Origin: Candidatus Vogelbacteria bacterium RIFOXYD1_FULL_46_19
GTDB lineage: Bacteria > Patescibacteriota > Minisyncoccia > Phycocordibacterales > XYD1-FULL-46-19
Reading direction: 5' to 3'
DNA: 64,000 nucleotides
Assembly (NCBI GenBank): GCA_001824825.1
Contig: MHTK01000002.1
Location: 70,020-134,019 of the forward strand
Shown here one piece after another: positions 12,571 to 60,740 of the stretch; the stretch's first letter is position 1; each line of letters opens with the position of its first letter. The notes beneath the pieces were generated by a model. It was given only the letters and a program-made list of their open reading frames with translations. It made no database searches and was not told where the DNA came from. The position numbers and the translations under genes are program-made.

Positions 12571-12653
12571 GTGAACCCTATCATACCTCTTCGTTAATTT
12601 AAGTAAAACTAAATCCGGCTGGCGGGTTTTAAAGGATAGTCACTCGTTTGAGT

Positions 12654-12689: not shown

Positions 12690-12704
12690 GTGAGGCTGAC
12701 TGGT

Positions 12705-12911: not shown

Positions 12912-13031
12912 CTCCTTTCTACGAGAATTATAGACTAAAACTAATAATTTGTCAATAGATAGCGGTTAGGCTGGTTAAGATGATTTTCCAAGGTTTAACC
13001 TTGGAGTGGGGAGGGTGTGATGTAATGGGGA

Positions 13032-14957: not shown

Positions 14958-15019
14958 CCGCCTACTATAGCATAATTTCTTTCGCAGATGACGGTGATTA
15001 AGCTATAATAAATAGTAAT

Positions 15020-15424: not shown

Positions 15425-15483
15425 CCCAAGACGATAAAAGGTAAGGCTGATTATTCTTTAAAACAAGTTCCCCCGGGGTTTAT

Positions 15484-18107: not shown

Positions 18108-19157
18108 TTGTCCCCAAGGCTTATTTTAGGTTTTTTGGCCGTTATCCTCATTTTTACCACTTACCACACTGCTCATGCTGGGGTGTTTTCAGCTTTAGGT
18201 AGTAAGTTGAGTGGCGAAACTCCTTTTTATGTTCTAAATCAGGCCGTGGGGGCCAACTCTCAGAAGCTAGCTCTACTGGAACCGGAAGCAACTTTGGCCA
18301 GTAGTGCTCGTGGTGGCTTGGATCCGCAAATCGAAGATGGAGTGGCCCTGGCCCCGGTGGAAGGTTTCGAGGGATCGGCTCAAGCTACAGCTATTATTCC
18401 CCCCAACGACCAAATTAGTGTTTATGTAGTCAAAGAGGGAGACAGTTTGTCACAGGTGGCTGAAATGTTTGGGGTGTCCGTCAATACTATTATGTGGGCC
18501 AACAATATTAAGAAGTCCACTAGTATTAGTGAGGGTGATGTGCTGGTGATTTTACCTATTACTGGTGTTCGACATATCGTGAAGGCTGGAGAAACGATTG
18601 CTAAGATCGCTAAACTCTACAGTGCTGATACGACAGAAGTGGCTAATTATAATGCTTTAGCGGAAGGAACGACGCTTAAAGCCGGGGATGAAATAATAGT
18701 TCCACACGGCGTCATCCCGGCGCCGAAGGCTCCAACTAAGAAAGCACTGGTTAAATCCAAGGATGGCTCCTCTCCTTCGACCGCGTCTAAGTACGCTAAC
18801 TTACCCGATTCTTCTGGTTACTTTATCCAGCCTTTGGTGGGGGGACGCAAAACCCAAGGTATTCACGGTAATAATGCCGTTGACTTGGCGGCGAGCTTAG
18901 GAACGGAGCTACGAGCGGCGGCGGCTGGTAAAGTTATTATTGCGCGAACTGGTGGCTGGAACGGAGGTTATGGCAACTACGTGGTCATTAGTCATGATAA
19001 TGGTTCTCAAACTTTGTACGCTCATATGTTAGATGTGGTGGTGTCTCCCGGCCAAGCAGTAGCCCAAGGACAGAGTATTGGTCACCTTGGGTCTTCTGGT
19101 AATTCGACCGGACCTCATGTTCACTTCGAAATTCGGGGGGTCCGCAATCCCTTCTAG
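18108..19157 (+). CDS. secreted LysM-LysM-M23 family peptidase (peptidoglycan hydrolase)
   Basis: Signal peptide; two LysM repeats (YVVKEGDSLSQVAE..., HIVKAGETIAKIAK...); C-terminal M23 motifs HGNNAVD...GYGNYVVISH...GPHVHFE. Confidence 0.85.
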   Translation: MSPRLILGFLAVILIFTTYHTAHAGVFSALGSKLSGETPFYVLNQAVGANSQKLALLEPEATLASSARGGLDPQIEDGVALAPVEGFEGSAQATAIIPPNDQISVYVVKEGDSLSQVAEMFGVSVNTIMWANNIKKSTSISEGDVLVILPITGVRHIVKAGETIAKIAKLYSADTTEVANYNALAEGTTLKAGDEIIVPHGVIPAPKAPTKKALVKSKDGSSPSTASKYANLPDSSGYFIQPLVGGRKTQGIHGNNAVDLAASLGTELRAAAAGKVIIARTGGWNGGYGNYVVISHDNGSQTLYAHMLDVVVSPGQAVAQGQSIGHLGSSGNSTGPHVHFEIRGVRNPF

Positions 19158-28859: not shown

Positions 28860-30395
28860 TTAAAGATCTTGATTATTTCCGTAGTTAACATTAACTAAGC
28901 CGGGTGAGATTTTCCCATTTATAATATCTAGGACTTTTTCAGTCACCGCTTTAGGTGGGGTGGATAGTTTTTTCAGTTCTTGGCCGTAGGTATTGATGTA
29001 AGCATCTCCGAGGGTAGAAGGGCTGATCAACGGGGTGTTGAGGTAGTAAGCTTCAAATATGTCTTGGTAGTGTCTGTTTATCTCGCTTACTAGTGAAAGC
29101 AGGGCTGAGTTGCTAACACTGTAGTTTATTAAGTGTTTGTGTTTGGCGGTTGGTTTGCCGGCTAGCCAAATTAATTTAATTTTGTGGGTCGGGCGGTTTT
29201 TAAGTAGAGCATTTAGTAATAATAAACTGCCACTAAGTTTGGTCGATATTAAATCTTTAATACCGTTTACGGTTAAATTTTCCAGATCTCCTTTACCGTT
29301 GCCGGGGTCCGCTGAAAAGATTATTACATGGGTATCCGAGGTCTCTTTTAAAAGTGTTTTTACTGAACTTGCGGAATTAATATTACACACTCTTTCATGC
29401 CAAAGTTTTTTACTGACTATTTTGGCTGATCTACTATAAAGCCATACGTCCCACCCTGCATTTTTTAGCTGGTTACCAATAGTTCTCCCTAAAGAATATT
29501 TTTTGGTTCCAGCTACTAATACTTTTGGGGTGTATCCTTTATGGGCGGTTATAAATGCCCAACCAATTTTTTTGCTTTTAACTGCACTTACTATACTTAA
29601 GTACCGGTTTTTTAGATCCCGCTCTGCTCGGCTTGGGTTGGCTACAATTTCATCCATTTGGTGAGCAAGTTTTTTGTAGGTATTTACCATATCTTCATTT
29701 TTTTGTTCAATTTTTATGTTTGAAAAAGATAGTCGTTTTAAGATTCTTTTGTAGGTAGCTGAAGATAACCCGTTGTCCCAATTAACCAGTTCTTTTATAA
29801 GTTGGGCTTCATTATTGTTTAAACTTTTGGTGGTCTCGTTTGATAAAAAGTCGGCTATAACCATAACTCCACCCGGGGCCATTAGTTCATACAAATTAGA
29901 AAATAGTTTTGATTTATTGGGTATCAAAAAAATTGCGTCTTGGCTAATAATGTGAGTAATAGTATTTTTTTGTTTAGCGAGTTTTTTGTCTATGTTGGAG
30001 GCTCTACTTCTGATAAAGCTTATATCTAGAATTCCAGCTGTTAAATTTGACGGTTTACTGTTAATTAATTTTATTTTTTTGTTGGCTTCTTTAATCATCT
30101 CATCACTAATATCTACTCCAATACCTTTGCAGTGATATTTTAAACAAATATCAATTAATGTTTGACCAGTGCCACAACCAATATCTAAAACGACAGAGCG
30201 CGAGTCTAGTGTTCTGGATGTGTTAACTTTGTTTATTAAGTGTTCTGTTGCGTTTAAGAATGACTTACTTAATGAATCATTTTTCGACGAAAACAAACCA
30301 ACGTGCAGGGTGTGATGTTTGGGATCCCACGTTTTGTCGTAATGTTTTTTTAGGGAGTTAAATTTTTTTCTAGTTTTTTCCTCGGTGGTTATCAT
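28860..30395 (-). CDS. fusion protein: class I SAM-dependent methyltransferase (CFA-synthase-like) + Rossmann NAD(P)-binding domain
   Basis: N-term HYDKTWDP...VLDIGCGTGQTLIDI motif I; C-term KVLVAGTKKYSLGRTIGNQL dinucleotide-binding-like; AT-rich codon usage distinct from flanks. Confidence 0.65.
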   Translation of the reverse strand: MITTEEKTRKKFNSLKKHYDKTWDPKHHTLHVGLFSSKNDSLSKSFLNATEHLINKVNTSRTLDSRSVVLDIGCGTGQTLIDICLKYHCKGIGVDISDEMIKEANKKIKLINSKPSNLTAGILDISFIRSRASNIDKKLAKQKNTITHIISQDAIFLIPNKSKLFSNLYELMAPGGVMVIADFLSNETTKSLNNNEAQLIKELVNWDNGLSSATYKRILKRLSFSNIKIEQKNEDMVNTYKKLAHQMDEIVANPSRAERDLKNRYLSIVSAVKSKKIGWAFITAHKGYTPKVLVAGTKKYSLGRTIGNQLKNAGWDVWLYSRSAKIVSKKLWHERVCNINSASSVKTLLKETSDTHVIIFSADPGNGKGDLENLTVNGIKDLISTKLSGSLLLLNALLKNRPTHKIKLIWLAGKPTAKHKHLINYSVSNSALLSLVSEINRHYQDIFEAYYLNTPLISPSTLGDAYINTYGQELKKLSTPPKAVTEKVLDIINGKISPGLVNVNYGNNQDL

Positions 30396-30407
30396 AATAG
30401 TCTAAAA

Positions 30408-31877
30408 TTAGATGTTATTTTTAAGTAGGTAGTCGACCATATTTCCTAATAATTTATAGGTTTTTACTCTAATTGATTCTTGGGTTTTCCACCCCGCTCT
30501 GTAAGTTAAGATGTGATTACTTAATTCGTGGCTAATTTTCCAATCAGTTTTATCTCTTATTGGTAAACCAAGTATATCTTTTCGTGGTAAACCTGGATAA
30601 ACGTCTAGAAAGGCTAATATATTGTTATTTATCATTTGGCTGGTCAGGGCTTGTTGATCAATAGCGTTTCCGTCTGCTGTATTTATAACAATTACTCCAG
30701 GTTTCATTTTTAGAATAAGTTTCTCGTTTAATGTGTTTTCAGCGTGGTGTGCCGGAAGATTGATTGAAATAATGTCCGCAATCTCAGACATTTTTTCAAG
30801 GGTTGAATACTTTATGCCAAGAGTCTTCTCCAGGTCGACTTTTCTTGTTTTAGAATAATAAATGACCTTAAAACCCATTCCGGTGGCTATTTTCGCCACT
30901 AAAAATCCAATTCTTCCCAACCCTACTATTCCGAACGTTTTACCGTTGAATGAATAAGTACTGGAAACAAGATTGCTAACATCTACGAGTTTATCTCCAA
31001 AGAGTATTTGAGATTTATTAAGATCAAATAAGTTAATATTTTTTGCCTCATAAAATATTATTTCGTTATCGGTTAAAAACTTAAAGTAACTCGCCAGTGT
31101 AGATTCGGTAAGTTGATATTGCTCGCAAATAACTCCAAGGGCCGTTAATCTTTCTATGGTAACGTTTAAGCCTTGCATATTAAGGAATCCAACTTTCCTA
31201 TTTTGGAGGAGTTTTTCTGGAATTAGGTCTTCCATATTTCTTTCGCTGAAGTCGAATTTTACTTGTCCTATTTTGTGAAAATGATGGACAAATTTACCGC
31301 GCCTAGTATTTTTTTCGTTACTTGAAAGTTTTCGGAAAAATCCAAATAAGTGATTAATAATAGTGTGCGATACCTCTTCTTGGTTTTTGGTCGAAGTGAA
31401 AGTGGTGGGGAAGTTTCTGGTGATTAATGAGAACAAACCAGCAAATACCACTTCTGAAACTGACTCCGTACCGTAGTCCGGGATATTAGTCACTTCTATA
31501 CCTAGTTTTTTAGCTAAAAGGGTGTTGATTCGATGCTCCTTTTCGTGGGTCCAAAAGATAACTAGTTTTAATTGGGGGTTCAATTTTAATATTTCATCCG
31601 GTATGTTGGTCCAACAACTAATAATAACGTCTGCACCCTCGACCCTACTCATTAGTAATTGAAGAGGAATGTTGTCGGTGGCAATTTCGGTGTAACACTT
31701 TTTACCTGTAAATACCCCCGGGTTATTCTCGTAGTCTTTTTCTAGACTTGCTGGGAGACTGGAGGGGTATTCTATTACCTCACGCGAAATACTGTTCAGA
31801 AGTTTTCGATGCTCGGGATAAAAGATTACCGTGTCTAGAATTACCACTTTATTAAATTTTTTGGCTAGGTTGATCAT
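30408..31877 (-). CDS. D-isomer-specific 2-hydroxyacid dehydrogenase family protein with ~150-aa insertion between catalytic and NAD-binding domains
   Basis: N-terminal catalytic-domain pattern (ADVIISCW...LKLVIFWT...GIEVTNIPDY...SVSEVVF) and NAD-binding GIVGLGRIGFLVAK separated by unmatched segment. Confidence 0.65.
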   Translation of the reverse strand: MINLAKKFNKVVILDTVIFYPEHRKLLNSISREVIEYPSSLPASLEKDYENNPGVFTGKKCYTEIATDNIPLQLLMSRVEGADVIISCWTNIPDEILKLNPQLKLVIFWTHEKEHRINTLLAKKLGIEVTNIPDYGTESVSEVVFAGLFSLITRNFPTTFTSTKNQEEVSHTIINHLFGFFRKLSSNEKNTRRGKFVHHFHKIGQVKFDFSERNMEDLIPEKLLQNRKVGFLNMQGLNVTIERLTALGVICEQYQLTESTLASYFKFLTDNEIIFYEAKNINLFDLNKSQILFGDKLVDVSNLVSSTYSFNGKTFGIVGLGRIGFLVAKIATGMGFKVIYYSKTRKVDLEKTLGIKYSTLEKMSEIADIISINLPAHHAENTLNEKLILKMKPGVIVINTADGNAIDQQALTSQMINNNILAFLDVYPGLPRKDILGLPIRDKTDWKISHELSNHILTYRAGWKTQESIRVKTYKLLGNMVDYLLKNNI

Positions 31878-32007
31878 AGGATATATATAACATAAACATA
31901 CACTATAGTCAAGTAAATAGTCTTAAGATTGTTGTAAATTATAAAAGATGTATAATATTTATATACACTTTTGATTAAAATAAGCTAGATATATCTATAT
32001 TTTTCGT

Positions 32008-34490: not shown

Positions 34491-34906
34491 AGGGCTATAG
34501 TAGCATAAAAGAGTTATTTTTGCAAGTAAACCGTACATAATTAGCTTAGGTAAAATAAAGGCCGATCCAGTTTGGGTATAGGGGAGGCTGGAGCGGCCTT
34601 ACTCATTGCTGTGCTGTGTAGACCTTTTTTGTCCGGTGTTAGGTGACTGGAAGGTATACGCTTTGAGTATTCCTATTTTACCTTTATTGGTTAGGCTTGT
34701 CAATCCCCCTCATATGGAATGATTCCGCTGACTGGTACCCCCAGGTTTCTCTGCGCTCAAAAGAGCAAAGCCATTCCATGTTTTTTTTGGGGGGGGTGTA
34801 CACCCCCCTGTAAATGTGCTCTAGGAGGGTCCTTAGAGTGGTAGTTTGTCTTGAAGTTGTAATATTGTGCGACTCTTTCTATACTGAATCAACAAAACTA
34901 CTAAAT

Positions 34907-35818
34907 ATGAAACTCATTGAACAACAGAAGCAAGAATTTCTCGACTACTTAGAGATTGAAAAGGGGCGGAGCTTGAAGACTCGCAGTAGTTATGATCGCT
35001 ATTTAAGCCTTTTTTTTAAGCAAACGAAAATCTCGTCCCCGACTGATATTGATGAGAATCTACTTAGAGAGTTTCGTTTGTGGTTGAATCGCCAGCCCGG
35101 TACGACCGGCACCTTGAAAAAAAATACCCAAAATTATTATTTAATTGCTCTTAGAACTTTTTTGAAGTACTTGGCGAGGCGGGGTGTTCCTTCCCTCTCG
35201 CCAGAGCGGATTGAACTGGCTAAAACGCCTGGTCGGGAGATTGATCTCTTAAATGAGGTGGAACTCGGCCGGCTACTTACTATGCCGGCCGACCAAGACG
35301 AAAAAAGTTTGAGAGATAAGGCTATTTTGGAGCTATTGTTTTCGACCGGCCTTCGGGTGTCCGAGTTAACCGGCTTAAACCGTGATTCCATTGACTTGTC
35401 TCGCGACGAGTTTAGTGTGCGAGGGAAGGGTGAAAAAGTGCGGCTGGTATTTTTGTCGCTCGACGCCAAAGAAGCTATTAAGACTTATTTAAAAAAACGA
35501 GTTGATATTGAAGAGGCTCTATTTGTGAGTTTAAAAAATAAAGTCGGTGATGCTCCGACTCGCCTCACTTCTCGTAGTGTGGAAAGAATAGTGAAGTTTT
35601 ACGCTACGAAGGCGGGTATTGGCAGTAAGGTTACCCCGCACACCATTAGGCATAGTTTTGCGACTGACCTCTTACAAAATGGGGCTGATATCCGCTCGGT
35701 GCAAGCTATGTTGGGCCACTCGAGCGTGGCCACTACCCAAATATATACTCACGTGACCGACAAGCACTTACGAGAGATTCATCAGAAATTTCACAATCGT
35801 AAAAATACTGGCTCTTAA
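34907..35818 (+). CDS. tyrosine site-specific recombinase, XerC/XerD family
   Basis: N-terminal FLDYLEIEKGRSLKTRSSYDRYL core-binding domain and C-terminal HTIRHSFATDLLQNGADIRSVQAMLGHSSVATTQIYTHV (R..H..R...Y); start at MKLIEQQKQ. Confidence 0.85.
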   Translation: MKLIEQQKQEFLDYLEIEKGRSLKTRSSYDRYLSLFFKQTKISSPTDIDENLLREFRLWLNRQPGTTGTLKKNTQNYYLIALRTFLKYLARRGVPSLSPERIELAKTPGREIDLLNEVELGRLLTMPADQDEKSLRDKAILELLFSTGLRVSELTGLNRDSIDLSRDEFSVRGKGEKVRLVFLSLDAKEAIKTYLKKRVDIEEALFVSLKNKVGDAPTRLTSRSVERIVKFYATKAGIGSKVTPHTIRHSFATDLLQNGADIRSVQAMLGHSSVATTQIYTHVTDKHLREIHQKFHNRKNTGS

Positions 35819-37612: not shown

Positions 37613-37637
37613 AAAGAAACTAGTACTCCACTTGTGT

Positions 37638-37708
37638 GCTCTCGGAGGGACTCGAACCCCCAACGACGGTTCCGAAGACCGTTGTGATATCCATTTCACC
37701 ACGAGAGC
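37638..37708 (-). tRNA. tRNA-Arg (anticodon TCG)
   Basis: Manual fold: acceptor GCTCTCG/CGAGAGC, D stem GTGA/TCAC, anticodon stem ACGGT/ACCGT loop CTTCGGA, T arm GGGGG-TTCGAGT-CCCTC, discriminator A; no encoded CCA. Confidence 0.8.
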
Positions 37709-37790: not shown

Positions 37791-37989
37791 TGTGCGGGTA
37801 GGGAGAATCGGTCAGGAATATCTTGCCCTCCGTCGAGGACAAGATTTCACGACCCTGGCTCACCTGTTTTTCTTGCTAGAAAAACATAGTTCCGCCTTTC
37901 GATTCTCCACGCAAGTAAAGCAGTTTACTTGCTCATTCCGTCACTAAAACCACAAAAAACCAGGTTAAAACCTGGTTTTTTGTGGTTAG
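37791..37989 (-). repeat. tRNA-Gly trailer module copy A: terminator + ~150-nt structured core + 18-19-nt direct repeat of tRNA-Gly(GCC) 3' end
   Basis: Reverse complement of 43354..43555 is near-identical (150-nt core 100% identical); 37793-37810 tgcgggtagggagaatcg repeats tRNA 3' end at 37990-38007. Confidence 0.8.
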
Positions 37990-38060
37990 TGCGGGTAGGG
38001 AGAATCGAACTCCCGACTCGTCCTTGGCAAGGACGTGTTCTACCACTAAACCATACCCGC
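37990..38060 (-). tRNA. tRNA-Gly (anticodon GCC)
   Basis: Manual fold: acceptor GCGGGTA/TACCCGC, anticodon stem CGTCC/GGACG loop TTGCCAA, T arm GGGAG-TTCGATT-CTCCC, discriminator A. Confidence 0.8.
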
Positions 38061-39575: not shown

Positions 39576-39648
39576 CGGGACGTGGTGTAACGGCTAACAT
39601 TCTCGGTTTGGGACCGAGCGATTCCGGGTTCGAATCCCGGCGTCCCGA
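39576..39648 (+). tRNA. tRNA-Pro (anticodon TGG)
   Basis: Manual fold: acceptor CGGGACG/CGTCCCG, D stem GTGT/ACAT, anticodon stem CTCGG/CCGAG loop TTTGGGA (G37), T arm CCGGG-TTCGAAT-CCCGG, discriminator A. Confidence 0.8.
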
Positions 39649-43282: not shown

Positions 43283-43353
43283 GCGGGATTAGTTAAATGG
43301 TATAATATCAGTTTTCCAAACTGAGGTTGGGAGTTCGATTCTCCCATCCCGCA
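43283..43353 (+). tRNA. tRNA-Gly (anticodon TCC)
   Basis: Manual fold: acceptor GCGGGAT/ATCCCGC, D stem GTTA/TAAT, anticodon stem TCAGT/ACTGA loop TTTCCAA, T arm GGGAG-TTCGATT-CTCCC, discriminator A. Confidence 0.75.
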
Positions 43354-43555
43354 CAAACCACAAAAGACCGGATTTTAACCTGGTCTTTTTTTGGTTTTAG
43401 TGACGGAATGAGCAAGTAAACTGCTTTACTTGCGTGGAGAATCGAAAGGCGGAACTATGTTTTTCTAGCAAGAAAAACAGGTGAGCCAGGGTCGTGAAAT
43501 CTTGTCCTCGACGGAGGGCAAGATATTCCTGACCGATTCTCCCATCCCGCACAAA
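43354..43555 (+). repeat. tRNA-Gly trailer module copy B: terminator + ~150-nt structured core + 22-nt direct repeat of tRNA-Gly(TCC) 3' end
   Basis: 43534-43555 cgattctcccatcccgcacaaa = 43336-43357; core identical to reverse complement of 37811-37960. Confidence 0.8.
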
Positions 43556-50806: not shown

Positions 50807-51985
50807 TTAACTGGTTTCGGTTTCAGGTGGGGCATCAGCTATCTCTGACTCAGCACTGGCTTCTGGTTCTAGTTTGACTGCTAAGTCTTCCGGAATCTCG
50901 GGGGTGGTAATATTTATTTTCCAGCCGGTAAGCTTGGCGGCTAAGCGGACGTTTTGACCGCCTTTGCCGACCGCGAGAGAAAATTGATCAGCACTCACAT
51001 CCACAGTCGCTTGATGCTCGTCTTCATTTAGGGTCACATCATTAACTTTGGCCGGTGATAGGGAGTTGGTAATAAACATAGACATATTATCCGACCACTC
51101 GATAATATCGATTTTTTCTCCGCCCAGTTCGGCGATCACGGTGTTCACCCGAGAACCGCGCTGGCCCACCATCGAGCCAACCGGATCAATACTATTATCA
51201 TGAGAGGTGACGGCAATTTTGGTGCGAGAGCCGGCTTCACGGGCGACCGCTTTTATTTCCACGGCGCCACTGCCGATTTCCGGTGCTTCCATGGCAAACA
51301 ATTGCTCGACAAATTTAGGGTGCGAGCGGGAGAGTTTCAGAGCAATCCCCCGTGGGGTGTCTTCTACCAAGTAAAGATAAGCCCGAATACGCTCGCCTTG
51401 ACGGTAAAATTCCCCGGGGATTTGTTCCTCGTAGGGGAGGATAGCGGTGGTGCGGCCCAGGTCCACAAACACATTACCACGTTCGATTTTTTGTACTTTA
51501 CCACTGGCAATCTCGCCTTCCTTTTCGGCGTATTCATCCAAAATAGAAACCTTTTCGGCTTCACGGATGCGCTGGATAATCACTTGCTTGGCCGTTTGGG
51601 CGGCGATGCGGCCGTAGTCGTCTTTGGTTTCCAAGGGGAAAATCAGTTCTTCACTCACTTGGATATCTTTTTTAATTTTTTTGGCATCATCAATCAAAAT
51701 GTGATGTTCCTCATTAAAGAGAGGACGTTCGTCTGCATCGTCACGAGGCTCCTCTTCATCGAAGCGAACGGTGGTGCCGTCGACGGCAATTTTAACCTGG
51801 TTAAATTCAATGGCGCCGGTGTTTAGATCAAAGTTGGCCCGCACAATTTGCCCTTTCTTACCATAGTCTTTTTTATAAGCGGCCACTAAAGCATCGTTAA
51901 TAGCTTCGGTGATTTTTTCCCGGGGAATGTGACGCTCTTCTTCCAGTTCGCTCAGGGCCGCGTTTAAAGCTTTTAAGTCAATCAT
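50807..51985 (-). CDS. nusA: transcription termination/antitermination factor NusA
   Basis: N-terminal domain, S1 and tandem KH domains; acidic C-terminal tail. Confidence 0.9.
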   Translation of the reverse strand: MIDLKALNAALSELEEERHIPREKITEAINDALVAAYKKDYGKKGQIVRANFDLNTGAIEFNQVKIAVDGTTVRFDEEEPRDDADERPLFNEEHHILIDDAKKIKKDIQVSEELIFPLETKDDYGRIAAQTAKQVIIQRIREAEKVSILDEYAEKEGEIASGKVQKIERGNVFVDLGRTTAILPYEEQIPGEFYRQGERIRAYLYLVEDTPRGIALKLSRSHPKFVEQLFAMEAPEIGSGAVEIKAVAREAGSRTKIAVTSHDNSIDPVGSMVGQRGSRVNTVIAELGGEKIDIIEWSDNMSMFITNSLSPAKVNDVTLNEDEHQATVDVSADQFSLAVGKGGQNVRLAAKLTGWKINITTPEIPEDLAVKLEPEASAESEIADAPPETETS

Positions 51986-52423: not shown

Positions 52424-53023
52424 ATGGCTAACGTCGTTGGCGACGAAGTGTTGGGCAAGATTGCTCGGCAGCAGCATGATTGGTTTCGACGGGTGAAAGA
52501 AGGATCATTGGATCCTGCCGAGGTTTTGCTGGTCCATCAGATTATCCAAGACTTTGGGGACGGTAAAATACCGAACTTACTGGGACTAAGGAGAGGAACT
52601 CATGAACTTCGGCCAGTCAAATATGTTATCGACTGCGACGCCGACCCCTTCCTGCCTGACGGCTGGAAAGTGGAAGATCACCAGCAGGGCGGTATCCTTA
52701 AATGGACGGAGTCGCTCATCGCTCTCTATCTCGACCAGAGACAGCAGAGCGGCCGGTGCATCGGTCACGACCTGCGCCGGGCGCTCAGGAATCAGAAGGT
52801 TCTGAACGCCAACGTGTTAGACTTCCTCTTACAGCACCCCGAGCTCATCCCTGAAGAGTGGAAGGGCAAAGAAGTTTTCTTCTGGGGCACCATCTACCTC
52901 ATTTCTGACGACAATCTCTGCGTCCGTTCTTTGTCCTGGCACGGCGATGAGTGGCGCTGGAGCCACTTCTGGCCCGACTTCATCTGGCCCAACAACTACC
53001 TTGCCGCGGTGCGCGCAAGTTAG
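52424..53023 (+). CDS. hypothetical protein, GC-rich orphan gene
   Basis: 199-aa ORF, Trp-rich C-terminus, no motif recognised; GC visibly higher than neighbours. Confidence 0.5.
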   Translation: MANVVGDEVLGKIARQQHDWFRRVKEGSLDPAEVLLVHQIIQDFGDGKIPNLLGLRRGTHELRPVKYVIDCDADPFLPDGWKVEDHQQGGILKWTESLIALYLDQRQQSGRCIGHDLRRALRNQKVLNANVLDFLLQHPELIPEEWKGKEVFFWGTIYLISDDNLCVRSLSWHGDEWRWSHFWPDFIWPNNYLAAVRAS

Positions 53024-53198
53024 CCCTTTGGGATTGGTTTCTGTGTTCTAAACTTAACTTAGGTACCCTGACCTTAGTTCTTGAGCCCCGTGCTTTTCTG
53101 TGTAAACACAGATTAGCGGCGGGGCTCTTTTTGTTTGGTTAAGATACCAACAGTTGGGGGGCGGTAAAAAATTGATCTGATGGTATAATTTTAAAAAC

Positions 53199-54842
53199 AT
53201 GAGTTCTTCTATCTTGCTTAATTTTTTAGTGACCAGTCGTTTGTTGTCACCAGCGGAAGCCGACAGTGTGGCCGCGGAAGCGGAGGAGCACGGCTTGTCG
53301 GCTTCGGAGCTACTCCTGGCTCGGGGACTTTTTACCGGTGATGAGTTGCGCCGCTTGGAAGCGCGGCTCTCGGGGGTACCTTTTATTTCCGCTTGGGATG
53401 AGCCGGTACCGTTTGAAGTGTTGGCCCGGATTCCGGAGCCGGTGGCCCGCAATCACAATGTGATTGCGGTGCGGGAAAATGACGGTGCCTTGGAAGTAAT
53501 TGGGCTAGATATGAGTGCTTTTCCGGCGGTAGAAAAGTTGGTAGGTGAACACAAGTTGCGACTCTTACCACGCTTGGGGAGCGAGCCGGTGGTACGCAAG
53601 CTTTTGAAGACTTATCAGAAAGATTTGTTTGACCGCTACGGCCAGACCCTACGACACTTGACGGAGACTGGGCCGGAGGATGGTTTGACCGAGCAGCACT
53701 TAAACAATGTTTTGGAAGTTTTATTTAACCAAGCCGCCACCGCCAGAGCCAGACGCATTCATTTTGATATTACCCCACAGGAAACTTTGGTCCGTTATCG
53801 GATCGGTTCGCGACTGTATAATGCCCTCGCTTTAAACAGTAGTGCCGGCGAACTTTTAACGACTTTGAAAGCAGAATCGGTGCCGGCGACTGCTGCTTAC
53901 TCTTTGGCCGGGTTACACACGGCAGATTTGGGTACTAAAATGATTTTCACGGCTAAAAATCAAATGACTGATTTGTCCCTGCCGGCGCTCGGTTTATGGG
54001 GGCAAGGTCTGGATGATTTGGAGGCGGCCCTAGAGCGGCGCGGTATAATTTTTATTGGTTCGGAAGCCCTTAGCAGTCGGAAAAATTTGTTTTACGCTAT
54101 CGCTGCTACTTTATCCAAAGCTGGCCGGGCGGTGGCGATGGTGGAAGCTGACAGGGAGCGTTACCTACCTCATGTTCATCAAGTGATAACAACCAATCTC
54201 TCGACTACGGCCACGACTGACTTGATGCGCCAAGTTTTAAAACAAGATGTGGATGTTTTAATAATTGACCGGTTGCTCGCGGTAGAGACAGCCGCTTTGG
54301 CTACTGCCGCGGCGGCGCGCGGAGTGACGGTGGTGGTTGGACTGGAAGCCAAAACCACGGTGGATGTTATCACGACGGCTCGCATCTTGGTGGGTGATGA
54401 TTATATTTTAGCGATTAATGCCTCACTGTTTGGCTTGGTGGAGCCGGTACGAGCCCTGGGTTCCGATAGCCGGCCGGCCAATTTAAGTGAGGACGAGCTG
54501 AAAGATTTGAAAGGTTTTGTAAATTTACCGAACATAGCTCAAGCCCTAGCCGATGGAGCTCCGCTAGTGGGGGCGGTTGCGAGCCTTGCCAACTCAAATT
54601 GGCGTACGAGGAGCCAAGGAGCCTCTGAGCCACTTTTAAATAAAAAAAGGTTGCTGACGGAAATTTTACCGGTGACGGCGGTGATGGAGCATCAGCTTAA
54701 AGATGGTAAAACCACCGCTGAAATTTATAAGGAAGCGCGCCAGACAGGGGTTTTATCCCTCGGGGAAGACGCGCTGACCCAAGCGGCTCAAGGGTTGGTG
54801 GATTTAAATGAGGCGATAGCGGTGGTGAGACGAGCGGTGTAA
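53199..54842 (+). CDS. PilB/GspE-like protein with GspE-N domain and degenerate ATPase motifs (probable pseudo-ATPase)
   Basis: N-terminal GspE_N-like domain; N2-like ARRIHFDITPQETLVRYRIGSRL; Walker A position reads GSEALSSRKN instead of GPTGSGKST, Asp box VEADRE, His box absent; PilB-like C-terminus GVLSLGEDALTQAAQGLVDLNEAIAV. Confidence 0.6.
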   Translation: MSSSILLNFLVTSRLLSPAEADSVAAEAEEHGLSASELLLARGLFTGDELRRLEARLSGVPFISAWDEPVPFEVLARIPEPVARNHNVIAVRENDGALEVIGLDMSAFPAVEKLVGEHKLRLLPRLGSEPVVRKLLKTYQKDLFDRYGQTLRHLTETGPEDGLTEQHLNNVLEVLFNQAATARARRIHFDITPQETLVRYRIGSRLYNALALNSSAGELLTTLKAESVPATAAYSLAGLHTADLGTKMIFTAKNQMTDLSLPALGLWGQGLDDLEAALERRGIIFIGSEALSSRKNLFYAIAATLSKAGRAVAMVEADRERYLPHVHQVITTNLSTTATTDLMRQVLKQDVDVLIIDRLLAVETAALATAAAARGVTVVVGLEAKTTVDVITTARILVGDDYILAINASLFGLVEPVRALGSDSRPANLSEDELKDLKGFVNLPNIAQALADGAPLVGAVASLANSNWRTRSQGASEPLLNKKRLLTEILPVTAVMEHQLKDGKTTAEIYKEARQTGVLSLGEDALTQAAQGLVDLNEAIAVVRRAV

Positions 54843-54856: not shown

Positions 54857-55657
54857 ATGACGGGTATGAAAGATAAACTGATTGTTTTTAACTGGAAAAT
54901 GAACCCGGCGGAAGCTAAGGAGGCTCGCTGGTTGGGGGCCAAGGTTAAAACTATCAGTAGCCGACTAAAAAAGGTGCAGACGGTGATGGTGCCACCGGCG
55001 GTTTTTTTACCTCTCCTCACATCGACCAAGCCGAGCCGGCGGTGGTCCCTCTCGGCTCAAGATATCTCGCTCGAAAAAGAGACGGGGGCTTTTACTGGTG
55101 AAATTTCGGCGACCCAGGTGGCTTCGGTGGGAGCCAAGTATGTAATAGTCGGCCACTCGGAACGTCGAGGGAGGGGAGACACTGACGATGTGGTGCGCGG
55201 GAAGCTCATGGCCGGCCTCATGGCCGGCCTTAGTGTTATTCTATGTGTGGGCGAAAAAGCCAGGGACGCGCACGGTGCTTATTTAGATTTTTTGCGAGCT
55301 CAACTGATTTCCGCAACCAAAGCTTGTCGCCGGGCTGATTTTAAAAATCTAATCATTGCCTATGAGCCGGTCTGGGCGGTGGGTGACCAAGCAGCCGGGG
55401 CGGATACACCGGATAATTTTTTCCATAACGCTCTGTTTATCCGGAAGGTCATTAGTGGGCTGGCCGGACAAGAGACAGCCCTTTCTATCCCGATTTTATA
55501 CGGTGGGTCGGTTAATTCAGCTAATGCGGTCGAGTTTTTAGCCGCTGGTCGGGCCGATGGTTTACTGATCGGACGAGCCTCGCTCGTGCCGGAGGAGGTG
55601 AAGGCGATATTGCTCTTGGCCGATCAGGTGAAGGTAAAAGTAAAAGTTAAAAAATAA
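54857..55657 (+). CDS. tpiA: triosephosphate isomerase
   Basis: LIVFNWKMN, VIVGHSERR, AYEPVWAVG, GGSV motifs; ends with VKVKVKVKK tail; alternative start 54866. Confidence 0.85.
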   Translation: MTGMKDKLIVFNWKMNPAEAKEARWLGAKVKTISSRLKKVQTVMVPPAVFLPLLTSTKPSRRWSLSAQDISLEKETGAFTGEISATQVASVGAKYVIVGHSERRGRGDTDDVVRGKLMAGLMAGLSVILCVGEKARDAHGAYLDFLRAQLISATKACRRADFKNLIIAYEPVWAVGDQAAGADTPDNFFHNALFIRKVISGLAGQETALSIPILYGGSVNSANAVEFLAAGRADGLLIGRASLVPEEVKAILLLADQVKVKVKVKK

Positions 55658-55660: not shown

Positions 55661-56779
55661 ATGGCCAAAATTCCTTTTAAAAGTATTAAAGAATTAAAAC
55701 CGGTCGCTTTGAAAGGTAAGTATGTCTTGGTGCGGACCGATTTTAACGTGCCGGTCGACCAAGGTCGGGTGACCAACAATTTTCGCCTTAAGCAAGCTTT
55801 ACCAACTTTGGAGTATCTAAGGCGAGCCGGGGCCCGGGTATTGGTGATTAGTCACACGACCGGACCAACCCTAAAGCCTATGGCTTTGGAATTGGAGACT
55901 TTTATTAAAGCTGGTTTTTCCCAGCTTATTTTTGATGATGGTCGTTTCCAAGCGATGCCTGATGGCTCGGTGATGGTGTTGGAAAATTTGCGCGGCCAAG
56001 TGGAAGAAGAAAAAAACAGCGAGTCTTTAGCCAAACGGCTGGCCTCTTTGGCTGATGTTTATGTCAACGACGCCTTTTCGGCCTCTCATCGCCGGCACGC
56101 CTCTATTGTAAGCTTGCCTAAACACTTACCGAGCTACGCCGGTTTAAATTTTGGGCGTGAGTATACAGAGTTATCTAAAATTTTTAAAGCGCCAAAACCA
56201 TTTACGATAATTTTAGGGGGAGCTAAATTTTCCACTAAGTTGCCCTTGGTAGAGTCGCTCCTGCCTAAGGCCGACCACATTTTTGTCGGTGGGGCCCTGG
56301 CTCACACTTTTTTTCGTAAGCTAGGTTATGAAATCGGCAAATCGCTAGTAGAAGAAGATATGAGAGGTCTGACAGAGTTGCTAAAAAATAAAAAAATAAT
56401 TTTACCGACCGATGTAGTGGTAAAAACCGCTGAGGGTTCAGAAGTTAAACAACTAGAAAGCATCCGCCGGCAAGATATAATCGTAGACGTTGGACCGGCC
56501 ACTTTGAAACAATTAAGTAAACTTGTGCGTGAGTCCAAATTTATTTTATGGAATGGGCCGTTGGGAAATTTTGAAAAGGGTTTTGCCGGGGGTACCGAGA
56601 AACTGGCGCGTATCGTGGCGCGGGCCGATGCTTATTCCGTGGTGGGCGGTGGGGATACGGTGGCAGCTATTGAAAATTTAAAGTTGGCGGAAAAATTTAA
56701 CCACCTATCAACGGCCGGCGGAGCGATGATGGAATTTTTGGCCACCGGTACTTTACCGGGGATTGAAGCCTTAAAATAA
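55661..56779 (+). CDS. pgk: phosphoglycerate kinase
   Basis: VLVRTDFNVP N-terminal signature, GGAKFSTKL, GGGDT. Confidence 0.9.
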   Translation: MAKIPFKSIKELKPVALKGKYVLVRTDFNVPVDQGRVTNNFRLKQALPTLEYLRRAGARVLVISHTTGPTLKPMALELETFIKAGFSQLIFDDGRFQAMPDGSVMVLENLRGQVEEEKNSESLAKRLASLADVYVNDAFSASHRRHASIVSLPKHLPSYAGLNFGREYTELSKIFKAPKPFTIILGGAKFSTKLPLVESLLPKADHIFVGGALAHTFFRKLGYEIGKSLVEEDMRGLTELLKNKKIILPTDVVVKTAEGSEVKQLESIRRQDIIVDVGPATLKQLSKLVRESKFILWNGPLGNFEKGFAGGTEKLARIVARADAYSVVGGGDTVAAIENLKLAEKFNHLSTAGGAMMEFLATGTLPGIEALK

Positions 56780-56853: not shown

Positions 56854-58428
56854 ATGAAAAGAGTGGTGACACAAAGGGTGTCGGCTGAGCAACTCTATAA
56901 TTCGGATGATACTTTGCGTCTTCGTGACGTAGTGTATTTTCCTGGGAGTTGGGGTAAGCCGATTGAAGATGAAGATTTAGTTCAGGTGCTTAAGCTACTG
57001 TGGTTTCAGGAGCGAGCCGGTCGAGAGAGTTTGCGGTGGTTCGGTGAGCACCCCGGTTTTGTGATGGACACTCTCCAATCTTTTTATGAGGTGGATATTG
57101 GTTGCTATTGTGGACTCGAGCCTGCTTGGATTCACGATCTACCGAGAAGTCTCAGAAGACATCTTCGGGTACTGGGAGATATAGCCGCCCAGCGGGCCCC
57201 TCAAGACGTCTTCCAACTAATCCCGCAGCTACCGTTTACCGGCTTTGGACTGTCGGTGGAAGAAGGAGGGATGGTTGAGGCGGTGTATCGACACTGGCCT
57301 TTGCCAAGACTCGCTCGGGTGCGTCAGTTAGGGATGTTATCTCTTCCAGTTGTTGGACCAGAGCGACCCCACTTTTATGGTATCGGCTTTCAGCATACGC
57401 GTTATGTGCATAGTCTGATTGCGTATGCTTTTGCCACTTTGTGGGCGACCACTTGTGGCTTGACGGAGGACGAAAGTACAGTGATTAGACTAGCGGCTTT
57501 AACTCATGATCTCTTGACGCCGGCTGGTAGCGACACTACTAAACAGGTGGATCCGGTTCGTTTTGATGAAGACGCCAACTACTTCCGTTTGTTCGAACAC
57601 CCCGGTTGGCCCGCTTTAGCGGACAAATTCCAGGTTAACCAGTCGTTACTTTTAGAGACGATTGCCGGCCAAGGCCCTTTGGGCAAGCTTCTAGATTTGG
57701 CCGACAAGCTGTCCTACACCTTGGTGGACGCTGATAGTTTGCGTCGCCAACTACCGCGTGGCGTAATAGACTCGCCCGAGCTTGACTTGTTCCACCGGTT
57801 ACTGGAGAGCTATCCCTTTATTTTAAGCTGGTGGGATAGGGTGATGATGATGGAAGGACAAATGGTGGTAGCGTCGCCTCGGCGACTGGCGAATTTTCTC
57901 TTGTTGAGGGCGCTTATGTTCAAGATTCTTTACTTGAATCCGGCGGCCCGTTTGGTAGAGGAGGTTTACGGTTTAGCTCTTCGTTTTCTCTATGAACGAG
58001 GCGAGGTGACCACTTGCGACTTGCTCGATGGTGGGGACGAGGTAGTTAAAACCAAAGTGTTGGCGCTATTAGGGGAAAGCGACCTCCTTTCTGGTGATGA
58101 TGATATGTGGCGGCCTCGTCTCCAAATGTTTGAAACAGAAAAGGAGGCAGTAGACTACGAACAAACTATTCATCCACCGTGGATCGCTATTCGGACGGTC
58201 CGGCGCCCCATTAAATCGGCCCTGGATTCTTTCCCTGTTCTCTATTGCGGGCGGGTGGAATCACTACGCTTAGTCAGACCGGCAGAGGCGACCGAGATTG
58301 AGCGACTAATTGCTATTGATCGGCCATATTGCGTTTACTCTTGGTCTATTGAAGAAATTCGTCGCAACGGATCAAGAGAATTTGCTGGTTGGCTTGAAGG
58401 TGGAGGTGGAAGTATCGTTTCTCATTAG
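56854..58428 (+). CDS. HD-domain-containing protein
   Basis: HTRYVHSLIAYAFATL...AALTHDLLTPAGSD consistent with HD phosphohydrolase fold; rest unassigned. Confidence 0.5.
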   Translation: MKRVVTQRVSAEQLYNSDDTLRLRDVVYFPGSWGKPIEDEDLVQVLKLLWFQERAGRESLRWFGEHPGFVMDTLQSFYEVDIGCYCGLEPAWIHDLPRSLRRHLRVLGDIAAQRAPQDVFQLIPQLPFTGFGLSVEEGGMVEAVYRHWPLPRLARVRQLGMLSLPVVGPERPHFYGIGFQHTRYVHSLIAYAFATLWATTCGLTEDESTVIRLAALTHDLLTPAGSDTTKQVDPVRFDEDANYFRLFEHPGWPALADKFQVNQSLLLETIAGQGPLGKLLDLADKLSYTLVDADSLRRQLPRGVIDSPELDLFHRLLESYPFILSWWDRVMMMEGQMVVASPRRLANFLLLRALMFKILYLNPAARLVEEVYGLALRFLYERGEVTTCDLLDGGDEVVKTKVLALLGESDLLSGDDDMWRPRLQMFETEKEAVDYEQTIHPPWIAIRTVRRPIKSALDSFPVLYCGRVESLRLVRPAEATEIERLIAIDRPYCVYSWSIEEIRRNGSREFAGWLEGGGGSIVSH

Positions 58429-58514: not shown

Positions 58515-58919
58515 TTACTCTTTTTGCTCAGAAGTTAGAGTGTCTTTAATAAGTTGAGCATTGGTGGTGAAATCTTTTTTGTCCCCTCGAGCTTTAGAGC
58601 TGGGATAGACCCAGATGTGGGCGTGGGGCACTTCGTCACCCACAATTTTAGATAAAATCCACTCGGTATTAAAGGCTTGTCTTTGGGCTAAGGCTACTTT
58701 ATGAGCGACGGCAAAATATTTTTCGATGGTGGGCCCCTCCTTCGCCAAGGCTTCGGCGGGCAGGTCCCAAACCCAGCGGTAATGTTTTTTGGGTATCACT
58801 TGGACGTGGCCAACGGACTGTGGGTTGATATCGAGGAAGGCTAAAAAATTTTCATCCTCGTACACAGTATAAGACGGAATCTCACCAGCGACTATTTTAC
58901 AAAAAAGGCAATCGTTCAT
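58515..58919 (-). CDS. HIT (histidine triad) family protein
   Basis: CLFCKIVAGEIP N-terminus and HxHxHxx-type HAHIWVY motif. Confidence 0.85.
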   Translation of the reverse strand: MNDCLFCKIVAGEIPSYTVYEDENFLAFLDINPQSVGHVQVIPKKHYRWVWDLPAEALAKEGPTIEKYFAVAHKVALAQRQAFNTEWILSKIVGDEVPHAHIWVYPSSKARGDKKDFTTNAQLIKDTLTSEQKE

Positions 58920-59003: not shown

Positions 59004-60740
59004 ATGCAAAAACGCTGGCTATTAAAACAAACGACCAGCCATTCGGACCTGGCGGGCTTGACTGAACTTTCAGCCACGATTTTAGCTAATCGCGGAGTTA
59101 CCTCAGGGCTTGAGGTTGCGGCTACCATTAGTCCCGACTATGCCGAGCACTTGCATGACCCTTTTTTAATGAAGGATATGGCGGGTGGAGTAAAACGCAT
59201 TCTCCAAGCGATAAAAAAGCAGGAAAAAATATTAATTTTTGGTGATTATGACGCCGACGGAGTACCAGCCTCCGCGGTTCTCGCTTGTTTTTTCAAACAA
59301 ATCGGTTACGAGCATTTTGATGTTTATATACCCGATCGCCACAATGAACAGTACGGCTTGTCGGTCGCCTCGATAGAAAAGTTTGCTGGGGAAGGGGTGA
59401 AGCTCATTATCACTGTCGATTGTGGGGTTTCCAATATCAAGGAGATTAAACGAGCCGGGGAGTTGGATCTCGAGGTGGTGGTGACCGATCATCACTTGCC
59501 ACCAGCCGAGTTGCCCCCGGCGGTGGCGGTGATTAATCCGAAGCGCTTGGATGATACCTATCCTTACAAATTTTTAGCGGGTACCGGGGTGGCTTTTAAG
59601 CTGGTGCAAGCTCTGATGGCTAAAGGTAAATTTACTGCGATTAAACCGGGTTGGGAAAAATGGCTCCTGGATCTGGTGGCGATTGCGACCGTGGCTGATA
59701 TGGTGCCGATGACGGGCGAAAACAAAGTGTTAACGCGCTTTGGACTGTTGGTACTTAAAAAAACCAGACGGGTTGGTCTGCTTGCCCTATTTAAAGCTTT
59801 GAAGTTGAAGCAACAATTTCTAGTGGAAGAAGATATTGGTTTTATGATCGGACCAAGGCTAAACTCGGCCGGTCGGATGTCGCATGCTTCGCAAGCTTAT
59901 TTTTTGTTAATGACGGATAATGACACGGAGGCCAGAACTATTACCACTCACTTGGAAGAAAAAAACCAAGAGCGGCGTAGTCAAGTGACTGACATTTTGG
60001 CGGAAGCGGATTTAAAGTATCAAGCGGCTGAAATTCCAGCGGTCGTGGTCTTAGGGCGGACGGAGTGGGGACTGGGAGTTTTGGGTCTCGCGGCGGCGCG
60101 GATTTCGGAAAAGTATAAGCGGACCACTTTTATTTGGGCCAAAAACGGCAATGGCGAAATCAAGGGTTCTTGTCGTTCGGGCGGTGAAGTAAATGTGGTG
60201 GATTTAATGGCGGCGGCCGGCGGGCGAGAATTCTTTTCCGACTTTGGGGGGCATGCTTTTGCGGGCGGATTTTCTTTGCCAGAGTCGCGCTTGGAACAGT
60301 TGGAGGAGACTCTCCTTAAGGCTTATGAAGATTTGCCTAAAACCGAAGTTATTGAGGAAGAGGAGGCCGATGCCAAGATTGGTCTTGATGATATTACTTG
60401 GGCTACTTTCAGCGAGGTAGAAAAGCTGGCACCGTATGGTTTGGAATTTCCGAAACCGGTGTTTTGGTTAGAGGGGGTGGAAATTGTGGCCGCTAAAAGT
60501 TTTGGTAAAACCGGTGGTCACGTGGAGCTGGTGTTTAAAAATTCTAAAGGGGAGTCGATACCAGCCATCGCCTTTTTTTCATGCGAGGGAGAACTGGCCT
60601 ATGACCAAGGCCACATTTGGCTCGGAGTAAATTTAGCCCCTGGTCGGCGAGTAGACGTACTTGCTAATATTGAGAAATCAACTTTTAAATACAAGCCGGA
60701 ACTCCGCTTGCGTATAGTTGACTTAAAGCAAAGTATTTGA
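59004..60740 (+). CDS. recJ: single-stranded-DNA-specific exonuclease RecJ
   Basis: DHH motifs ILIFGDYDADGV, ITVDCG, VVTDHH; DHHA1 GGGHAFAGG. Confidence 0.9.
   Translation: MQKRWLLKQTTSHSDLAGLTELSATILANRGVTSGLEVAATISPDYAEHLHDPFLMKDMAGGVKRILQAIKKQEKILIFGDYDADGVPASAVLACFFKQIGYEHFDVYIPDRHNEQYGLSVASIEKFAGEGVKLIITVDCGVSNIKEIKRAGELDLEVVVTDHHLPPAELPPAVAVINPKRLDDTYPYKFLAGTGVAFKLVQALMAKGKFTAIKPGWEKWLLDLVAIATVADMVPMTGENKVLTRFGLLVLKKTRRVGLLALFKALKLKQQFLVEEDIGFMIGPRLNSAGRMSHASQAYFLLMTDNDTEARTITTHLEEKNQERRSQVTDILAEADLKYQAAEIPAVVVLGRTEWGLGVLGLAAARISEKYKRTTFIWAKNGNGEIKGSCRSGGEVNVVDLMAAAGGREFFSDFGGHAFAGGFSLPESRLEQLEETLLKAYEDLPKTEVIEEEEADAKIGLDDITWATFSEVEKLAPYGLEFPKPVFWLEGVEIVAAKSFGKTGGHVELVFKNSKGESIPAIAFFSCEGELAYDQGHIWLGVNLAPGRRVDVLANIEKSTFKYKPELRLRIVDLKQSI

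Follow-up and report, generated by a model that had tools for sequence, protein, structure and literature searches.

The PilT-like ATPases share a set of nucleotide-handling residues. Walker A, Walker B, the catalytic Glu, a pair of arginine fingers and one ASP-box glutamate are completely conserved among them, a HIS-box histidine is highly conserved, and in PilB the conserved ASP-box glutamate also forms salt bridges between subunits (PMC5424180). Type IV pilus components, including PilM, PilN, PilO and PilT, are reported to be widespread in the Candidate Phyla Radiation (CPR) and co-localized in numerous CPR genomes, and the CPR lack an outer membrane secretin (PMC6744442). Saccharibacteria have two pilus systems with active PilB1 and PilB2 (PMC11623550), and published work on Saccharibacteria and CPR either describes PilB1, PilB2 and PilT whose Walker boxes are intact or treats PilB and PilT as a single family. 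Here we describe a PilB-like protein of Candidatus Vogelbacteria bacterium RIFOXYD1_FULL_46_19 that, as far as alignments can tell, retains only one ASP-box glutamate of the residue set that defines these enzymes. Its gene lies in a stretch of 64,000 nucleotides (contig MHTK01000002.1, positions 70,020 to 134,019 of the forward strand), which we call the window and within which all coordinates are counted. The product is identical to OHA60176.1 from a Ca. Vogelbacteria metagenome-assembled genome (MAG), named "hypothetical protein A2589_00680" in GenBank and "GspE N-terminal domain-containing protein" in UniRef. The gene, its domains and the remnants of its motifs are as follows.

53199 to 54842, forward strand: PilB-like pseudo-ATPase open reading frame (ORF), 547 amino acids (aa), ATG start; assigned from profile, structure and database matches
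53373 to 53621, forward strand: N1 domain (MshEN/GSPII fold), residues 59 to 141, the best-conserved part of the degenerate clade
53691 to 53954, forward strand: N2 domain, residues ~165 to 252; fold retained, arginine-finger hairpin deleted
54057 to 54086, forward strand: Walker A relic, G287-SEALSSRKN-296, canonical GPTGSGKTT; from alignment and model
54138 to 54164, forward strand: Asp-box relic, M314-VEADRERY-322, canonical IEDPIEY; E316 and E320 kept, Asp-Pro lost
54246 to 54281, forward strand: Walker B relic, D350-VDVLIIDRLLA-361, with IIDRLLA for canonical MVGEIRD; catalytic Glu replaced by Arg358
54318 to 54356, forward strand: His-box relic, R374-GVTVVVGLEAKT-386, aligned to canonical TGHLILSSLHTND; the histidines replaced by Val376 and Glu383

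By sequence and fold, the protein belongs to the PilT-like/T2SSE superfamily. Scoring against hidden Markov models, suggested by an earlier sequence-only reading of this DNA, passed the Pfam gathering thresholds for T2SSE (PF00437, residues 253 to 539; 61.1 bits versus 24.9) and MshEN (PF05157, residues 59 to 141; 30.5 bits versus 23.1). The equivalog cut-offs were missed for PilB (TIGR02538, 59.5 bits, far below 675.65), GspE (TIGR02533, 56 bits versus 630.25) and ComGA (NF041000, 32.1 bits versus 300), as was that of the TfpB model (NF053534, 36.2 bits versus 850). The nearest solved relatives by sequence were Thermus thermophilus PilF, Vibrio cholerae GspE and Geobacter PilB (E of ~1e-8). 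An AlphaFold2 model computed from a 78-sequence alignment had a mean predicted local distance difference test score of 91.4 and zero segments below 50. Its top Foldseek match in the Protein Data Bank was 4pht, a complex of full-length GspE with GspL (489 columns, E = 2.7e-24); hexamer subunits of PilB (5tsh and 5zfr) and PilF (5oiu) came next, with E values for PilB, GspE and PilF ranging from 1e-22 to 1e-24. The fold landmarks that the sequence-only reading had called intact are therefore real.

The protein has the same N1 (MshEN/GSPII), N2 and C-terminal RecA-like architecture as PilB of Geobacter metallireducens (5tsh) and PilF of T. thermophilus (5oiu; Foldseek E of ~1e-22 for this pair), is encoded where bona fide CPR PilBs have their genomic position and keeps the subunit-bridging Asp-box glutamate. 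In contrast to PilB, it lacks Walker A, the catalytic Glu, the His-box histidines, the arginine fingers, the zinc-binding tetra-Cys motif and adjacent pilC and pilin genes. Over the full length, the closest structural match is GspE of Vibrio vulnificus (4pht), and the match extends to its N1 domain, which binds the GspL/PilM-type platform protein; the Vogelbacteria protein differs from it by the catalytic losses, and no type II secretion system (T2SS) genes lie nearby. An ORF of 132 aa inside the gene on the opposite strand (53054 to 53452) found no support and is held to be spurious.

Motifs were placed by alignment to solved PilF, GspE and PilB and to a canonical reference PilB (P0006), and residue roles were taken from the G. 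metallireducens PilB structures (PMC5424180). The alignments agree that GSEALSSRKN occupies the P-loop position, where the sequence-only reading had put it. In the model, a strand spanning residues 282 to 288 is followed by a two-residue loop and a helix that begins at 291, and there is therefore no phosphate-binding loop. Orthologues read SASSTNLKD, GSNIETIKE or AEKLDSLKE at this position, none of which fits GxxGxGK[ST], and Arg, Leu or Ile is aligned to the Walker lysine. There is no P-loop elsewhere in the protein. Its sole GK[ST], G503-K-T (residues 503 to 505), was considered as a cryptic P-loop and rejected, as it lies between two helices in the model, no Walker A glycine pattern precedes it and orthologues do not conserve it.

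The remaining motifs have eroded to different degrees. The HIS box reads GVTVVVGLEAKT for canonical GHLILSSLHTND, with both histidines lost. Conservation of the catalytic Glu falls from 1.00 in canonical proteins to 0.27 in the degenerate clade, and the Walker B position of orthologues reads hhhhDE. The N2 hairpin that carries the equivalents of R257 and R271 of G. metallireducens PilB is deleted in the subfamily of the Vogelbacteria protein, and the equivalent of R286 is Thr251. No cysteine is found at the positions aligned to the tetra-Cys zinc site; this motif is also missing from P0179 and P0185, two canonical CPR PilBs encoded at the same locus, and the loss of the zinc site therefore predates the catalytic decay. 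The Asp box (VEADRER) keeps E316, which is invariant across the family, as well as E320. Walker A and the His box are thus destroyed as had been described, but the Asp box, listed with them, is only half lost. Read from the alignments, the protein lacks every nucleotide-handling element except the Asp-box glutamates. The persistence of these two glutamates and of D350, D352 and D357 in the Walker B region, together with hhhhDE in orthologues, could be taken to mean that the protein is still a nucleoside triphosphatase with a non-canonical or shifted active site. We give this almost no credence, given a helix modelled two residues after the strand in place of a glycine-rich loop, the Arg, Leu or Ile at the Walker lysine position of orthologues, the loss of both histidines, the deleted arginine-finger hairpin, the Arg that replaces the catalytic Glu and a GKT at 503 to 505 that is not a P-loop.

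The degenerate state is not peculiar to one genome. Our first search returned four close relatives (42 to 43% identity) with the same degenerate motifs, as well as P0005, an intermediate with 27% identity in which Walker A is intact while the catalytic Glu and the His box are missing. When 1.84 billion representatives were searched exhaustively with a profile, 151 matches lay below 1e-30; they fell into a close family (n = 4, 668 to 980 bits) and ~150 mostly full-length proteins at 125 to 244 bits. Both His-box histidines were absent from 126 of the 150 sequences that could be scored; 55 had kept GK[ST] while losing the catalytic Glu and both histidines, 34 had lost all of these, and only 9 were fully canonical. 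Non-redundant degenerate sequences numbered 141. Source names of members include Paceibacterota, Kaiserbacteria, "Patescibacteria group" and one MAG labelled Saccharibacteria, and they are annotated publicly as PilB, "GspE/PulE family", "ATPase, T2SS/T4P/T4SS family" or hypothetical. The sequence-only reading had proposed conservation among orthologues as a check; the degenerate state is common to at least 140 non-redundant sequences.

Conservation was compared between the 141 non-redundant degenerate sequences and 33 non-redundant canonical ones. In N1 (residues 31 to 150) it was equal (0.44 to 0.56 in the degenerate set versus 0.48 to 0.56 in the canonical set). P79, E80, R84, L136 and L143 each reach at least 0.95 in the degenerate clade and exceed their canonical conservation there, and Y139 is also at least 95% conserved. 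In the core of the C-terminal domain (residues 301 to 420), conservation dropped from 0.72 to 0.83 in canonical sequences to 0.41 to 0.54 in degenerate ones. Where conservation is 80% or more in active PilBs and below 40% in the degenerate clade, the positions are largely nucleotide-handling ones: the Walker A Thr, Asp-Pro-x-x-Tyr of the ASP box, Gly-Glu-Ile-Arg of Walker B, both histidines and the following Asn, and several canonical Arg, Glu and Gln residues. Near the former active site, the subfamily of the Vogelbacteria protein has its own invariant residues (K295, E316, E320, R321, Y322, H325, Q328, D350, D352 and D357). Scores against the PilB model decrease stepwise, from 522.6 bits for the canonical locus PilB P0185 through 317 and 275 bits for the degenerate P0159 and P0044 to 59.5 bits for the Vogelbacteria protein, which is the lowest among the proteins scored; its subfamily is the extreme end of the erosion series.

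The new invariant residues around the former pocket and the MshEN domain, which the protein has in common with MshE and other MshEN receptors of cyclic di-GMP (c-di-GMP), raise the idea of a sensor whose N terminus or remodelled ATP pocket binds c-di-GMP or another small ligand. The degenerate protein P0159 (L010, 8001 to 9743) just passes the MshE-type c-di-GMP-motif model (38.9 versus 38 bits) with two motif mismatches, and some dead PilBs of this kind may have retained a nucleotide second-messenger site. The 24-residue motif tested was RLGxx(L/V/I)(L/V/I)xxG(L/V/I)(L/V/I)xxxxLxxxLxxQ. In the Vogelbacteria protein this motif is not recognizable: its best match, at residue 125, is out of register and wrong at 5 of 12 fixed positions, the NCBIfam model NF053729 gives no match, and only 9 of 168 degenerate sequences come within two mismatches. 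MshE itself is an active ATPase. A receptor function is a poor explanation, and we think it highly unlikely.

The position of the gene explains where it came from. The neighbours that anchor the comparison, and a promoter-like element, are these.

50807 to 51985, reverse strand: nusA, upstream synteny anchor in divergent orientation; from the ORF list and relatives' loci
53181 to 53189, forward strand: extended -10-like element TGgTATAAT, 9 nt before the ATG; found by eye only
54857 to 55657, forward strand: tpiA, which starts 15 nt past the stop codon of the PilB-like gene
55661 to 56779, forward strand: pgk, synteny partner; from the ORF list and relatives' loci
58515 to 58919, reverse strand: HIT-family gene, synteny anchor; from relatives' loci
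59004 to 60740, forward strand: recJ, synteny anchor, followed past the window on the same contig by RNase H and then comEC

All degenerate members lie between a divergent upstream nusA and tpiA-pgk-HIT-recJ, with RNase H and comEC further downstream. The order PilB-like gene, tpiA, pgk, HIT, recJ is shared by the window and loci L001, L002 to L005, L006, L010, L095, L096 and L097. Canonical CPR PilBs are found at the same locus, where nusA is followed by pilB-pilC-pilins-X-tpiA-pgk-HIT-recJ; two motif-intact relatives at this place (Nomurabacteria and Paceibacterota) have pilC, three small genes and a gene for 418 to 578 aa before tpiA. The small genes and the large gene there all start with class III (prepilin-type) signal sequences. 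The small genes have weak GspH, PilV and ComG-type pilin matches, and the platform gene matches GspF/PilC. A metagenome scan added 80 more loci, nearly all of them canonical PilBs arranged likewise; the median position of tpiA was +5103 nt. When duplicates were removed and at least 1.5 kb of downstream sequence was required, pilC was found within 4 kb downstream of 61 of 63 canonical genes (2 were without it) and of 0 of 10 degenerate ones, a contrast that is qualitatively clear-cut.

In a rough, distance-based neighbor-joining tree, 142 of 157 non-canonical sequences, including the Vogelbacteria protein, formed one clade. Syntenic canonical PilBs made up 40 of the 48 members of its sister group, and parsimony required at least three transitions. 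We conclude that the PilB-like gene is a positional orthologue of a genuine pilus motor, which lost its partner genes through one or a few ancient deletions, and we hold this account of its identity and history with high confidence. The sequence-only reading had placed the gene in a tight housekeeping cluster followed by tpiA-pgk; tpiA does begin 15 nt downstream with pgk next, but the gene does not belong to a housekeeping cluster; it is an orphaned survivor of a type IV pilus operon, the rest of which separates it from tpiA in related lineages.

The distance from the stop codon to tpiA was 15 to 61 nt in five degenerate loci, 355 nt in one and 5.2 kb in one. This last spacer (L011, 9647 to 14862, behind the degenerate P0038) holds about ten tiny ORFs of 43 to 250 aa without Pfam matches. 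A search for decayed pilC or pilin remnants in the L011 spacer, downstream of the gene in L084 and in the window gave only chance matches at E of ≤1, and L011 therefore cannot be called decay in progress. In the window, no Shine-Dalgarno sequence is visible before the ATG, and a promoter scan did not pick up the TGgTATAAT element because it has no -35. From its position, the element may mark a near-leaderless start of a pilB-like/tpiA/pgk transcript, and together with the 15-nt gap it suggests co-expression with tpiA-pgk.

Several observations concern the surroundings of the gene. Two ORFs without a Pfam match, at 56854 to 58428 (forward, 524 aa, between pgk and HIT) and 52424 to 53023 (forward, 199 aa, between nusA and the PilB-like gene), are absent from relatives' loci and are thus lineage-specific insertions in an otherwise conserved order. 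In the P0003 lineage, an IS200/IS605-type Y1 transposase gene (L002, 9177 to 9854; also in L003 to L005) lies directly upstream of the degenerate PilB-like gene, adjoined by a 934-aa ORF without a Pfam match. P0241, a 773-aa protein from a JGI contig of 4146 bp, joins PilB-like domains (MshEN, T2SSE) to NusA domains (NusA_N, S1, KH); it probably reflects an error of gene calling or assembly where nusA meets pilB, but these are the very neighbours seen at this locus.

In many Parcubacteria, the ancestral arrangement is seen as a compact operon for a type IV filament that sits between nusA and tpiA-pgk (L012, 4769 to 11346; L013, 8001 to 15041; L015 to L093). It consists of pilB-pilC, three small pilin-like genes and a 418- to 578-aa protein with a prepilin-like N terminus, which in L013 carries a "choice-of-anchor R" domain. 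The operon has no pilM, pilN, pilO or pilT, is oriented with tpiA-pgk and lies a few kilobases upstream of recJ-rnhA-comEC. It may be a CPR competence pseudopilus, but curated models were indecisive on a comG-type identity, favouring GspF/PilC/GspH/PilV over ComG without any cut-off being reached.

These gene contents bear on a second explanation, in which the pseudo-ATPase was repurposed outside pili, either as a scaffold for DNA uptake and processing by recJ, rnhA and comEC (compare the non-motor roles ascribed to ComGA) or in a role linked to glycolysis. The only invariant neighbours are nusA, tpiA-pgk, HIT, recJ, RNase H and comEC, and tpiA starts 15 to 61 nt past the stop codon in most degenerate members. 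The ancestral operon of ATPase, platform and small pilin-like genes without PilM, PilN, PilO or PilT resembles a comG-type pseudopilus operon and shows weak ComGB, ComGC, ComGD and ComGE matches. However, the PilC and pilin matches prefer GspF/PilC/GspH/PilV models to ComG models (none at cut-off), and gene order in reduced genomes need not imply functional coupling. The best-conserved part of the protein, N1, binds platform proteins in known homologues; to our knowledge ComGA has no N1 domain, which we count against this explanation as well. On balance, we consider a role outside pili rather unlikely, although it deserves more weight than the other alternatives.

The PilB-like gene is maintained. 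The frameshifts in orthologues that the sequence-only reading had named as a sign of decay were absent, since orthologues at 27 to 54% identity are full-length ORFs. Although the sequences diverge to 25 to 30% identity, each of the 10 degenerate loci examined, and likewise ~140 non-redundant clusters, had an intact ORF of 480 to 590 aa. Between the window and two sequenced orthologues, the proportion of nonsynonymous differences (pN) in the PilB-like gene was 0.33 to 0.42 and that of synonymous differences (pS) 0.72 to 0.77, which is saturated; pN of the neighbours was 0.19 to 0.36 for TpiA and 0.17 to 0.27 for Pgk and RecJ. The ratio of nonsynonymous to synonymous rates (omega, dN/dS) is about 0.25 or less, a figure that is an upper bound only because dS is saturated between orthologues. 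Identity between the window and its orthologues was 43% for the PilB-like protein, 50% for trigger factor, 51 to 52% for TpiA, 60 to 61% for Pgk and 82% for NusA; a canonical pair shows the reverse order, with 82% for PilB and 67% for TpiA. Among four sequences that are 42 to 54% identical, 107 of 547 columns are invariant. Locus L094 is 100% identical to the window over 12.5 kb and is therefore of no use for within-population dN/dS.

A functionless, slowly decaying relic, open by chance or carrying promoter or translational-coupling signals for tpiA-pgk, would be in keeping with the lost operon partners and catalytic residues, with an evolutionary rate above that of the neighbours and with the lowest PilB-model score among the proteins scored (59 bits versus 275 to 523). 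Yet the intact ORFs throughout the degenerate loci and clusters, a pN far below the saturated pS, the many invariant columns and the confident structure model make it improbable, and promoter or coupling constraints would not preserve amino acids. The gene is not a decaying pseudogene. Its intact orthologues, its low omega and a state common to at least 140 sequences uphold the earlier proposal that it was retained rather than left to decay, and the computed pattern is that of a pseudoenzyme: catalytic residues lost, fold kept and purifying selection across lineages.

We trace the history of the gene as follows and propose a function for its product. The gene corresponds by position to a PilB that, in many Patescibacteria, is the first gene of a small operon (pilB-pilC, three small pilin-like genes and a gene for one large protein) lying between nusA and tpiA-pgk-HIT-recJ-rnhA-comEC. 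In the ancestry of the window genome, pilC and the pilin genes were deleted. The orphaned PilB lost residues for ATP binding and hydrolysis, the His box and catalytic Glu first; in the subfamily of the Vogelbacteria protein, neither P-loop nor arginine fingers nor zinc site remains. Purifying selection nevertheless preserved the orphan as a well-folded protein of three domains, and its gene is probably transcribed together with tpiA-pgk. The protein would now act non-catalytically, most probably as a scaffold or a regulatory subunit. Its conserved N1 (GspE-N/MshEN) and PilB body could dock onto the usual contacts of PilB, be it a platform (PilM/GspL-type or PilC-type) in a different pilus machine or an active hexamer of PilB or PilT, and docking would occupy, stabilize or gate that machine, not power it. 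We favour this explanation as a whole, an orphaned PilB retained as a non-catalytic scaffold or regulator, and judge its chances to be somewhat better than even; the specific docking mechanism is a good deal more doubtful.

Additional family members that act on the machine of another motor are reported, namely TfpB of Acinetobacter baylyi and PilU, a PilT-dependent ATPase (PMC8213720, PMC6762196). They offer a precedent for a second family member that modulates a pilus. Unlike the Vogelbacteria protein, TfpB and PilU have retained the ATPase motifs and enzymatic activity. An analogy is provided by archaellum FlaH and by EccC of the type VII secretion system with its degenerate ATPase domains, which are non-hydrolysing or degenerate P-loop modules kept as structural or regulatory motor parts. 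They belong to other families (FlaH is KaiC/RecA-like and EccC FtsK-like), and FlaH still binds ATP, whereas the Vogelbacteria protein has no P-loop.

Several points weigh against the scaffold or regulator explanation. Across the 64-kb window and the 10 kb that follow on its right, neither an active PilB paralogue nor any other pilus gene was found, and the pilus machine onto which the protein would dock may not exist here. The conserved neighbours are all housekeeping genes, which is equally compatible with a role unrelated to pili. The PilB-like protein evolves faster than its neighbours, so that constraint is relaxed, though clearly present. The difference in pilC content has a nominal Fisher P of 1e-10 that overstates independence, since the canonical loci share ancestry and a single event may underlie the degenerate ones. 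Lastly, monophyly of the degenerate clade comes from the rough neighbor-joining tree and is vulnerable to long-branch attraction.

A broader possibility, which we offer tentatively and rate below an even chance, is that the degenerate proteins are an unrecognized, ancient, Patescibacteria-wide family of pseudo-ATPases exapted after deletion of the operon for an ATP-independent and possibly fitness-critical function. The conserved N1 and the re-conserved former pocket in the subfamily of the Vogelbacteria protein (K295, E316, E320, R321, Y322 and H325) hint at such an exaptation. The same reading may hold for SEML1_0527 of Southlakia epibionticum ML1, a genetically tractable organism. This orphan 540-aa "GspE/PulE family protein" has no adjacent pilC and no KEGG PilB assignment, and its T2SSE score (3e-71) is weaker than those of the two pilus PilBs of S. 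epibionticum (~1e-95). Its transposon sequencing classes are GD/ES/ES (growth-defective/essential) and are not discussed in the paper (PMC10633639, supplementary tables).

The rest of the window holds further features, listed here.

388 to 2208, 3962 to 6562 and 6559 to 9768, reverse strand, and 15484 to 17841 and 18108 to 19157, forward strand: ORFs of a type IV secretion system (T4SS)-like cluster
34814 to 35818, forward strand: tyrosine recombinase of the phage-integrase family
37636 to 37708, 37989 to 38060, 39576 to 39648 and 43283 to 43354: tRNA genes Arg-tcg, Gly-gcc, Pro-tgg and Gly-tcc

The T4SS-like cluster (388 to 17841) encodes a VirB4/TraG-type P-loop ATPase, a VirD4/TrwB-like coupling protein (Walker A GQTGTGKS) and a LysM-M23 peptidase, as well as two very large ORFs (866 and 1069 aa) without a Pfam match, and is worth noting for Ca. 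Vogelbacteria. A VirB11-like role of the PilB-like protein for these genes was rejected; its locus is conserved independently of any T4SS, and the cluster is 35 kb away. A low-GC island at 30001 to 32000 (GC of 0.343 versus ~0.46 for the window) covers a gene for a 489-aa D-2-hydroxyacid dehydrogenase-like protein and adjoins one for a 511-aa methyltransferase; it may have been acquired horizontally. The tyrosine recombinase, near the four tRNA genes, could be XerC/D or part of an integrated element.

A full-text literature search returned no earlier description of catalytically dead PilB or GspE orthologues, and although the sequences are already public, the clade is apparently undescribed. 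PilT-like ATPases are regarded as motors by obligation, and descriptions of the family call the residues lost here universally or highly conserved. A clade of PilB orthologues that is large and long-lived, with members folded but catalytically dead, would represent a clear case of a pseudoenzyme in this superfamily. Although these genes carry annotations such as "PilB", "GspE/PulE family" or "ATPase, T2SS/T4P/T4SS family", it would be wrong for metabolic reconstructions of CPR to count them as a sign of a working pilus or secretion system. The series at this single locus is unusually complete, from active PilB with pilC and pilins, through an orphan without the His box and catalytic Glu, to an orphan that also lacks the P-loop and arginine fingers, and it is a natural experiment on the roles of a pilus motor besides ATP hydrolysis.

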